Shown here in pieces: positions 38,563 to 39,714 of a DNA stretch of 44,408 bases. The notes under the pieces were generated by a model. The model made no database searches and was not told the DNA's origin. It worked only from the letters and a program-made list of their open reading frames with translations. The translations under genes were made by a program, and so were the position numbers. The DNA is taken from the NCBI GenBank assembly GCA_021807565.1, contig JAKBCU010000003.1:1-44408 (forward strand), given 5' to 3'. This stretch comes from Pseudomonadota bacterium (lineage in GTDB: Bacteria; Pseudomonadota; Gammaproteobacteria; DSM-16500). The first letter of the stretch is position 1; the number at the start of each line of letters is the position of its first letter.

Positions 38563-39714
38563 TTACACTCCAACAAACCATAATCCCCAGGTTCCAACCA
38601 ATGCATGGGCCAAACTAACCCCTACCAGCGTTCTATGTCTCGCATAAAGCCAGCCAAAATATAACCCTGCAAAAAATACAATCACTGCCAATTGCATTGA
38701 AATAAATAGATGAAACATGCTAAATATTAAATTGGATATCAAGATCGCTTTGGCGGTTTTATGTTTGCCCGTCAGAAACACGTCCAATGGACCTTGCAAC
38801 CCCCCTCTTGCGATCAATTCTTGCAGTGGACAAACAATCAGACAATAAAAAAATAAGGTTAGCCACCACCAAGTGATGCTTGGCATTTGTAGGCTAGAAT
38901 AGGGTTCAAACAAATGGCGATGTGCATAGGCAGGAACCCAATGAATCACAATCCATTTTAAAAGCACGATGAAAAAAAATAGGGGGAGAGTAAAAATAAC
39001 CGCTTCCAAAATGGCATGACGCCAATCTATCAATGTCAATCCAAATGCCTGTGGCGGTAAATGGGACTGTTTGACCATGAAGATGACAACAAATGCAAGC
39101 GCAACAGTCATAGGAAGAGAAATAACAGTGGTGGAGATCACGGCACTGGTCTCGCCGCTTAACCATTTTAATGCAAACACAAATATGCTCATCGCCATGA
39201 GCACATGGACAATAAATGAACTCATCGAGACACGCAATTTATATTCATTAATTTGTTTTTCTAAAATTCGTGTGGTGGTTTCATTCGATTGGCGAAATCT
39301 CTGGCTTAACCCTTTTACAATTTGAGCGATCACTCCATTAAAGCTTTTATCTTTTTCAGCCAAAAAAGTCAGCTCATTAAATGCGATACTGAGTAAGCGG
39401 GCTTTAGTCAGTGCTTTTATAGAGGCAGAACGCGGCCCTCGATCGAATAACGAGACTTCTCCAATGATATCATTCGGTCCCAATCGAGCCAGATCATGAT
39501 TATTTTGTTGAGAGACCTCTTGTTTTTCAACACACATGTCGCCCTCGATAATCACAAAAAAATCGACAGCCACATCTCCTTCTCGAACAAGATAGGTCCC
39601 TGGATTGATATGAATTTCTTTTGAAACACCGAGCAATAATTTCAGTTGTTTCTCTGATAAACCTGAAAATAAATTATTTTTGGCAATCAACTCGTTAAAC
39701 TCAACAAAATTCAT
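38563..39714 (-). CDS. Cyclic-nucleotide-binding domain fused to a polytopic CPBP (CAAX-protease / Abi) intramembrane metalloprotease domain
   Basis: The N-terminus has a cNMP-binding fold with a phosphate-binding cassette GEVSLFDRGPRSASIKA. The C-terminus has the CPBP motifs QELIARG (EExxxR-like), FSMFH (FxxxH) and HALVG (degenerate HxxxN), with six or more transmembrane helices. The start is set at MNFVEFNEL (39714), which has an AGGAG 8 nt upstream. The track start at 39768 is probably too far upstream. Confidence 0.7.
   Translation of the reverse strand: MNFVEFNELIAKNNLFSGLSEKQLKLLLGVSKEIHINPGTYLVREGDVAVDFFVIIEGDMCVEKQEVSQQNNHDLARLGPNDIIGEVSLFDRGPRSASIKALTKARLLSIAFNELTFLAEKDKSFNGVIAQIVKGLSQRFRQSNETTTRILEKQINEYKLRVSMSSFIVHVLMAMSIFVFALKWLSGETSAVISTTVISLPMTVALAFVVIFMVKQSHLPPQAFGLTLIDWRHAILEAVIFTLPLFFFIVLLKWIVIHWVPAYAHRHLFEPYSSLQMPSITWWWLTLFFYCLIVCPLQELIARGGLQGPLDVFLTGKHKTAKAILISNLIFSMFHLFISMQLAVIVFFAGLYFGWLYARHRTLVGVSLAHALVGTWGLWFVGV

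Follow-up and report, generated by a model that had tools for sequence, protein, structure and literature searches.

Membrane proteins of the CPBP family are abundant in bacteria, few of them having a known function, and the regulation of intramembrane proteases usually acts on the substrate, not on the enzyme. Within the Rce1/CPBP family (PF02517), the structure of MmRce1 (PDB 4CAD) shows the first glutamate (E140) and H173 holding the catalytic water and H227 and N231 forming the oxyanion hole (PMC5874806; also PMC11980579, bioRxiv 10.1101/516906), the second glutamate (E141) being directed away from a cavity that opens to the cytosol (PMC5874806). The same fold is found in the non-catalytic proteins SpdC/LyrA (PDB 6U0O) and LnsB of Staphylococcus aureus, Abx1 of group B Streptococcus and eukaryotic APH-1. 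Here we describe a gene on the minus strand of a 44,408-nucleotide stretch of DNA from a Pseudomonadota bacterium (contig JAKBCU010000003.1; the whole stretch is called the window below), the product being a membrane protein in which a cyclic-nucleotide sensor precedes a CPBP domain whose active site is altered. In known proteins that carry a cyclic-nucleotide-binding domain (CNBD), such as the CRP/FNR regulators, the cyclic-nucleotide-gated channels MloK1 and SthK, the EAL protein Bd1971 and the acetyltransferase Rv0998, the output domain is of another kind, whereas here it has the CPBP intramembrane-protease fold. A similar plan is seen in the Pycsar effectors PycTM and PycTIR, where, as is proposed here, an N-terminal CNBD with conserved Gly-Glu and Arg contacts controls a C-terminal effector module and where, as here, an Asn stands at the base-specifying position of the C-helix. 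The gene and its parts are as follows.

38563..39714, minus strand: CNBD–CPBP fusion gene, complete, 383 aa, stop codon included (list of open reading frames, translation checked)
39349..39714, minus strand: cytoplasmic cyclic-nucleotide-binding domain, residues 1–122, β-roll
39421..39462, minus strand: phosphate-binding cassette GEVSLFDRGPRSAS, residues 85–98 (Gly85-Glu86, Arg95-Ser96-Ala97), by alignment to PKA and CRP-like cassettes
39226..39348, minus strand: C-helix and linker, residues 123–163, with a conserved hydrophobic stripe (AlphaFold2 (AF2) secondary structure and conservation)
39280..39300, minus strand: CRP-type base-contact motif RFRQSNE (R139-x-R141-x-S143-N144-E145), by alignment with RRLRKTND of 2pqq
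38566..39225, minus strand: seven-helix membrane domain with a CPBP/Rce1-like core, residues 164–383
38806..38823, minus strand: variant CPBP motif 1, QELIAR (Q298-E299-x-x-x-R303), against canonical EExxxR
38710..38724, minus strand: CPBP motif 2, FSMFH (F331xxxH335), canonical FxxxH
38593..38607, minus strand: variant CPBP motif 3, HALVG (H370xxxG374), against canonical HxxxN

Pfam assigns two domains to the protein, both well above their curated thresholds, and the predicted folds agree, which bears out the fusion of a cyclic-nucleotide-binding domain to a CPBP membrane domain proposed in the sequence-only reading of this DNA. An identical 383-aa product has been called by NCBI on contig DAIAOJ010000070.1 of GCA_027437315.1, a Legionellales-like metagenome-assembled genome. 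The N-terminal domain matches cNMP_binding (PF00027) over residues 35–120 with 58.2 bits against a cutoff of 27.5 (E 8.1e-16) and has the β-roll fold with a C-helix lid; its nearest solved relatives by sequence are the Streptomyces CRP-like protein 2pqq (2e-14) and PKA RI-alpha. Gly85-Glu86 and Arg95-Ser96-Ala97 match the PKA and CRP-like cassettes residue for residue; in such cassettes Gly-Glu contacts the ribose 2'-OH, and Arg-Ser/Thr-Ala the phosphate. In a local alignment of 249 family members, from which all conservation counts in this text are taken, the Gly-Glu and Arg-Ser/Thr-Ala residues are kept in about 92–98% of sequences, the Glu and Arg in 92–94% (E86 in 229/249, R95 in 234/249; A97 in 226/249). 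The cassette first read as intact from the letters is therefore intact on alignment, with its Arg and Glu contacts in place, and conserved across the family.

The stretch of the C-helix that aligns with the base-contacting part of the CRP C-helix has the family consensus R139-L-R141-x-T/S143-N144-E/D (R139 in 181/249, R141 in 209/249, T/S143 in 170/249 and N144 in 169/249). N144 aligns with CRP S128 and with N143 of PsPycTIR, the Asn that specifies uracil in that protein (PMC11224242). With its cassette intact the domain probably binds a cyclic mononucleotide, and cAMP is the most likely ligand, judging from the sequence relationships. The cAMP-binding CRPs of actinobacteria, as in the Mycobacterium CRP structure, also have Asn at the N144 position, so that N144 matches this Asn as well as that of PycTIR.

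In the AF2 model a single unbroken helix spans residues 123–188 (pLDDT, the model's confidence score, 86–92), running from the C-helix of the CNBD into the first transmembrane helix (TM1). Along it, conserved hydrophobic positions (136, 140, 148, 151, 155 and 162) recur every 3–4 residues, a spacing consistent with a CRP-like C-helix dimer that extends into the membrane; the CNBD may thus dimerise and may pass its signal on through the continuous helix. In three members of ~410 aa (P0037, P0039 and P0041) an insertion of ~24 residues separates the CNBD from the linker helix; the coupling helix is thus not of one length throughout the family. Separately, some members carry an extra N-terminal region of ~150 residues, for example P0146 (533 aa).

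Hydropathy combined with the model points to seven helices and puts the CNBD, along with the basic loops 303–322 and 359–361, on the cytoplasmic side. The Rce1-like/CPBP match (PF02517) covers residues 282–373 at 2e-13, which clears the curated threshold, and the domain has the Rce1 fold. By sequence, the CPBP half matched no PDB chain either as a single query or as an 18-sequence profile; by fold comparison its top structural match was SpdC, from the SagB–SpdC complex. CPBP motifs had been claimed for this domain from the start. The domain match and the FxxxH motif stand, but EExxxR and HxxxN do not, the residues there being QExxxR and HxxxG. These departures are shared by nearly the whole family: Q298 is found in 245/249 members, E299 in 246/249 and R303 in 247/249, followed by Q307 (247/249); in the second motif the counts are 238/249 for F331 and 246/249 for H335, and in the third 246/249 for H370 and 237/249 for G374. 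Taken with N328, the polar residues Q298, E299, R303, Q307, H335 and H370 are each retained in 86–99% of members.

The register of the motifs was checked by aligning a hidden Markov model of the family membrane domain to four plasmid-borne CPBPs. Against the canonical Xanthomonas CPBP (AEEVFFRG...FGAAH...HAALN), the two Glu and the Arg fall opposite Q298, E299 and R303, and the Asn opposite G374. Two others of the four depart from the canonical form, that of Trichormus being of the QE type and that of Massilia having no motif Arg. Canonical CPBP genes for motif alignment were also sought in all fetched loci, and none was found. Stand-alone CPBPs with the identical QE/HxxxG signature do exist (P0064, P0066 and Trichormus WP_011316849). 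The last of these, 203 aa long, lies on a Trichormus variabilis plasmid (L030:580-1191) directly after a CHAT-domain (caspase-like) gene, and the same CPBP match recurs on a second plasmid of that species (H35).

Compared with MmRce1, then, the family has Gln for the water-activating Glu and Gly for the oxyanion Asn, which replaces two of the four mechanistic residues; because these are missing, we judge from the motifs that glutamic intramembrane proteolysis of the canonical kind is not its function. It further differs from Rce1 in its added N-terminal CNBD and long coupling helix, and no prenyl or lipid-modified substrate is known for it. The non-catalytic members of the fold are instructive here. 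APH-1 carries QExxR and two His, like the QE motif of the family; however, the motif residues of SpdC, Abx1, LnsB and APH-1 are generally degenerate, whereas the variant residues here are near-invariant in at least 249 sequences. Those proteins also have no nucleotide sensor, while the CNBD–CPBP family has a sensor but no known partner.

We consider it likely that the protein is a second-messenger-regulated membrane protein of ordinary signalling, whose CPBP fold has an altered active site adapted to altered chemistry or to partner binding. In such a scheme a cyclic nucleotide, most likely cAMP, would be bound by the cytoplasmic CRP/PKA-type CNBD, which probably forms dimers by way of its C-helix. 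The bound nucleotide would shift this helix and, with TM1 as the relay, alter the state of the CPBP cavity, which is under strong selection and would, as in Rce1, be polar and open to the cytoplasm. More likely than acting as a canonical protease, the protein would bind and control a membrane-anchored partner encoded elsewhere, or cleave it by altered chemistry. Within this signalling scheme we lean slightly towards altered or non-proteolytic action, and hold an active protease to be rather unlikely. Rather unlikely as well is a cyclic-nucleotide-switched intramembrane enzyme, in which a CPBP site of Gln/Glu-His-His in place of Glu-His-His-Asn would carry out proteolysis or a related membrane reaction. 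Of the earlier suggestion of a cAMP- or cGMP-regulated intramembrane protease in ordinary signalling, the signalling half fits the evidence, while the protease half is not assured given the altered motifs.

Several observations weigh against this scheme. In the alignment with the fourth plasmid-borne CPBP, that of Pantoea, a one-residue insertion puts E299 on the position of the first Glu; one Glu is absent in either register, and the change of Asn to Gly is unaffected. The remaining polar residues are near-invariant, a pattern that suits an enzyme better than a scaffold, so the protein may have a real protease activity with E299 or H335 as the base. Nor need the ligand be cAMP, since Asn144 stands at the uracil-specifying position of PycTIR. 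Finally, a literature search for CNBD or cyclic nucleotides together with CPBP or CAAX proteases turned up no paper that combines both domains, and no family member has a known ligand, substrate or phenotype.

The family is large and spread over many phyla. A word-indexed search gave ~60 clusters of the same architecture, the best match being only 48% identical; the protein's own 90%-identity cluster is represented by a 37-aa fragment (P0133), which hid the self-match in this first search for homologues. An exhaustive phmmer search gave at least 550 representatives of 50%-identity clusters at E<=1e-30, and the top 150 matches are almost all full length (370–420 aa), the architecture being constant across the family at about 380–400 aa. 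Related loci were sought with strict peptide patterns from the 30 closest sequences, a search that probably missed the Legionella clade, which is more distant. The hosts in this set are Legionellales and Coxiellaceae metagenome-assembled genomes (MAGs), Smithellaceae, Parachlamydiales/Chlamydiota and Verrucomicrobiota, and further hosts are Silvanigrella aquatica, an Alkalihalobacillus sp. and Legionella feeleii; copies also lie on a 373-kb plasmid of Legionella lytica and on a 1-Mb replicon of Azospirillum lipoferum. RefSeq labels the family only as 'cyclic nucleotide-binding domain-containing protein', so it is already in the databases under a generic name and is uncharacterised; what is new here is a large family with near-invariant non-canonical CPBP motifs and a predicted continuous CNBD–TM1 helix.

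Individual loci of the family show some peculiarities. The family gene of a deltaproteobacterial MAG (L021:9926-11124) is split into open reading frames of 99 and 238 aa, through either a frameshift/pseudogene or an assembly error, and in a Verrucomicrobiae MAG (L016:7472-9064, minus strand) a second, unrelated CNBD protein of 530 aa is encoded two genes upstream of the family member. The L. lytica copy (WP_252582690.1, annotated as 418 aa; plasmid pLlyPCM2298_1, L028, 106993-124069), the only one seen clearly on a mobile element, has near it a sensor diguanylate cyclase, a RES/Xre toxin–antitoxin pair, the phospholipase PlaB and insertion-sequence (IS) elements.

The architecture had first suggested a defence function, in the manner of Pycsar or of CBASS (cyclic-oligonucleotide-based antiphage signalling). 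An orphan abortive-infection effector of this kind would rely on an unlinked cyclase to make cCMP, cUMP or cGMP on infection; the CNBD would sense the product and the membrane domain would kill the cell through membrane damage. The logic of a CNBD wired to a membrane module does resemble PycTM (PMC11224242), Asn144 stands where PycTIR has its uracil-specifying Asn, and the distribution of the family is patchy and its context variable, with one copy on the L. lytica plasmid. PADLOC scans covered the CNBD–CPBP protein, 76 neighbour proteins and 25 window proteins. The protein matched at the level of a domain, to PycTIR and PycC models at 1e-9 to 2e-5 and also to a TIR-effector model, but over residues 25–149 only, the generic CNBD, with no PycTM match at E<=1 and no match on the effector module (residues 150–383). 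Among structural matches the PycTIR CNBD ranked 23rd, and the CNBD of the family is at least as close to PKA or CRP as to PycTIR. The membrane part, moreover, is a seven-helix enzyme-type CPBP fold and not a TIR domain or a small pore-forming transmembrane module. As had been noted, no nucleotide cyclase lies next to the gene; none is encoded in the window, and across the gene neighbourhoods of 21 genome loci and 7 others no cyclase family recurs. The ~30 homologous loci have no conserved neighbour in common, and unlike PycTM and PycTIR the family has no adjacent PycC in any locus and no defence-island context. CBASS pairs SAVED, STING or a similar sensor with a CD-NTase operon, whereas the sensor here is a CNBD, and neither a CD-NTase nor a PADLOC CBASS match was found in the window or among the neighbours. 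No PADLOC system is present in the window, and the generic single matches (ZorB/MotB, a DrmA-like helicase, SbcB) do not recur. No full-length family member was found in phage or viral collections. As neither the window nor the surroundings of the ~30 homologues contain a cyclase or defence gene, the likeness to a Pycsar/CBASS effector is not sustained, and we rank this as the least probable of the explanations considered. The gene immediately downstream raises a different one.

37742..38458, minus strand: secreted NlpC/P60/CHAP-fold protein, 238 aa, with invariant Cys73 and His151

This protein had been recognised from its sequence as a secreted Cys/His hydrolase, an identification that holds, and a two-gene unit had been suggested. 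On that view the hydrolase would have the CPBP-fold protein as its scaffold or regulator in the membrane, under cyclic-nucleotide control, after the pattern of SpdC with SagB and of LnsB with LnsA. The pairing is attractive in that LnsA is an NlpC/P60 protein and LnsB a CPBP protein with diverged motifs (PMC7387801), and here too a CPBP domain, whose top structural match is SpdC, is encoded beside a protein of the NlpC/P60/CHAP fold in which Cys and His are invariant. The two genes also share a strand across a 104-bp gap, 38459..38562, with no terminator-like site. That gap, however, contains a promoter-like site, the hydrolase is a neighbour in 0/21 CNBD–CPBP loci, and in three other genomes its homologues (55–67% identical) do not lie beside a CNBD–CPBP gene. 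In the closest syntenic locus, that of Legionellales UBA4722 (L001), the CNBD–CPBP gene is followed directly by the gene for a major facilitator superfamily (MFS) transporter, so the hydrolase looks inserted in the present locus. Tested from both gene families, the pair was rejected as a conserved unit, as neither family adjoins the other in any other genome examined, and we regard a functional pair as highly improbable. Still less probable, in our estimate, is a canonical CPBP role with the CNBD incidental, either as a bacteriocin-immunity (Abi-type) protein or as a myxosortase-like protease of sorting signals. The best NCBIfam CPBP matches are indeed myxosortase models (MrtJ 9.5e-11, Mrt_core 1e-7, MrtS, MrtX, MrtP), and the CNBD weakly matches the bacteriocin-transport-associated TIGR03896, but all fall far below their cutoffs (MrtJ 42.3 bits against 75, TIGR03896 53.4 against 161). 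No bacteriocin, ABC-C39 exporter or partner with a C-terminal sorting signal is conserved nearby, and myxosortases keep EE and HxxxN, which this family does not. Membership of the myxosortases (MrtX, MrtJ, MrtS, MrtP) was accordingly rejected on score, motifs and conserved partner gene, and that of the TIGR03896 bacteriocin-type transport-associated CNBD proteins on score. Lastly, the domain might have the CNBD fold without being a receptor for cyclic mononucleotides and sense another ligand, as happens in the branches of FNR, CooA and NtcA. The phosphate-binding cassette is usually lost in those branches; here Gly-Glu...Arg-Ser/Thr-Ala is kept in 92–94% of members, a hallmark of genuine cyclic-mononucleotide binders, which makes this quite improbable.

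The hydrolase is itself one of a wide family of 370 clusters (55–67% identity), found in Aquicella, whose species are its nearest named relatives, and in many gammaproteobacterial MAGs. It is far more conserved than the CNBD–CPBP protein, has no Pfam assignment above threshold, and many of its relatives are longer (280–410 aa). The remaining features around the CNBD–CPBP gene lie upstream of it.

39722..39726, minus strand: Shine–Dalgarno-like AGGAG, 7 nt upstream of the ATG at 39714 (direct sequence reading)
39776..39804, minus strand: σ70-like promoter match TTTAAA-17-GATAAT, upstream of the gene (consensus match only)
39833..40804 and 40767..44174, plus strand: DotU/IcmH and IcmF pair, open reading frames overlapping, divergent from the CNBD–CPBP gene

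Matches to the σ70-like consensus number 10 in the region against 6.3 expected, which makes the promoter evidence weak, and an alternative, longer start (TTG at 39768) is unsupported by homologues. The divergent pair fits the IcmH–IcmF accessory pair of Legionellales type; within the window the upstream side has no further Dot/Icm or type VI secretion genes. The window as a whole is core chromosome: it carries gspD, gspE and gspF of type II secretion, genes for an M4 metalloprotease and AsmA, an aa3-type cytochrome oxidase cluster, cydAB, MFS transporters and an SPFH protein. G+C content is 0.399 in the gene and 0.406 in the window, which we treated as equal. Two other genes of the window encode proteins that are wholly or partly without a Pfam assignment. 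The 904-aa SPFH protein (30225..32939, minus strand) has SPFH/Band 7 at residues 507–688 as its sole Pfam match, leaving ~500 N-terminal residues without assignment, and for a 750-aa open reading frame (17921..20173, minus strand), which lies between a cytochrome c gene and the cytochrome oxidase cluster, Pfam gave nothing at E<=1e-3.

The signalling protein with an altered CPBP site that we favour is not a new anti-phage system, and the case illustrates that a fusion of a CNBD to a membrane domain is not on its own evidence of Pycsar-like defence. The near-invariant Gln-for-Glu and Gly-for-Asn replacements define a subfamily in which either altered catalysis or pure binding may operate, a distinction that is testable, and hosts such as Legionella lytica, L. 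feeleii, Silvanigrella aquatica and Azospirillum lipoferum are culturable. Were the protein a nucleotide-switched CPBP enzyme, it would be under allosteric control by a soluble nucleotide and not by prior trimming of its substrate. More generally, the wiring of a CNBD to a CPBP domain through a rigid helix, if true, would show plainly that the CPBP fold can be controlled directly by a ligand.
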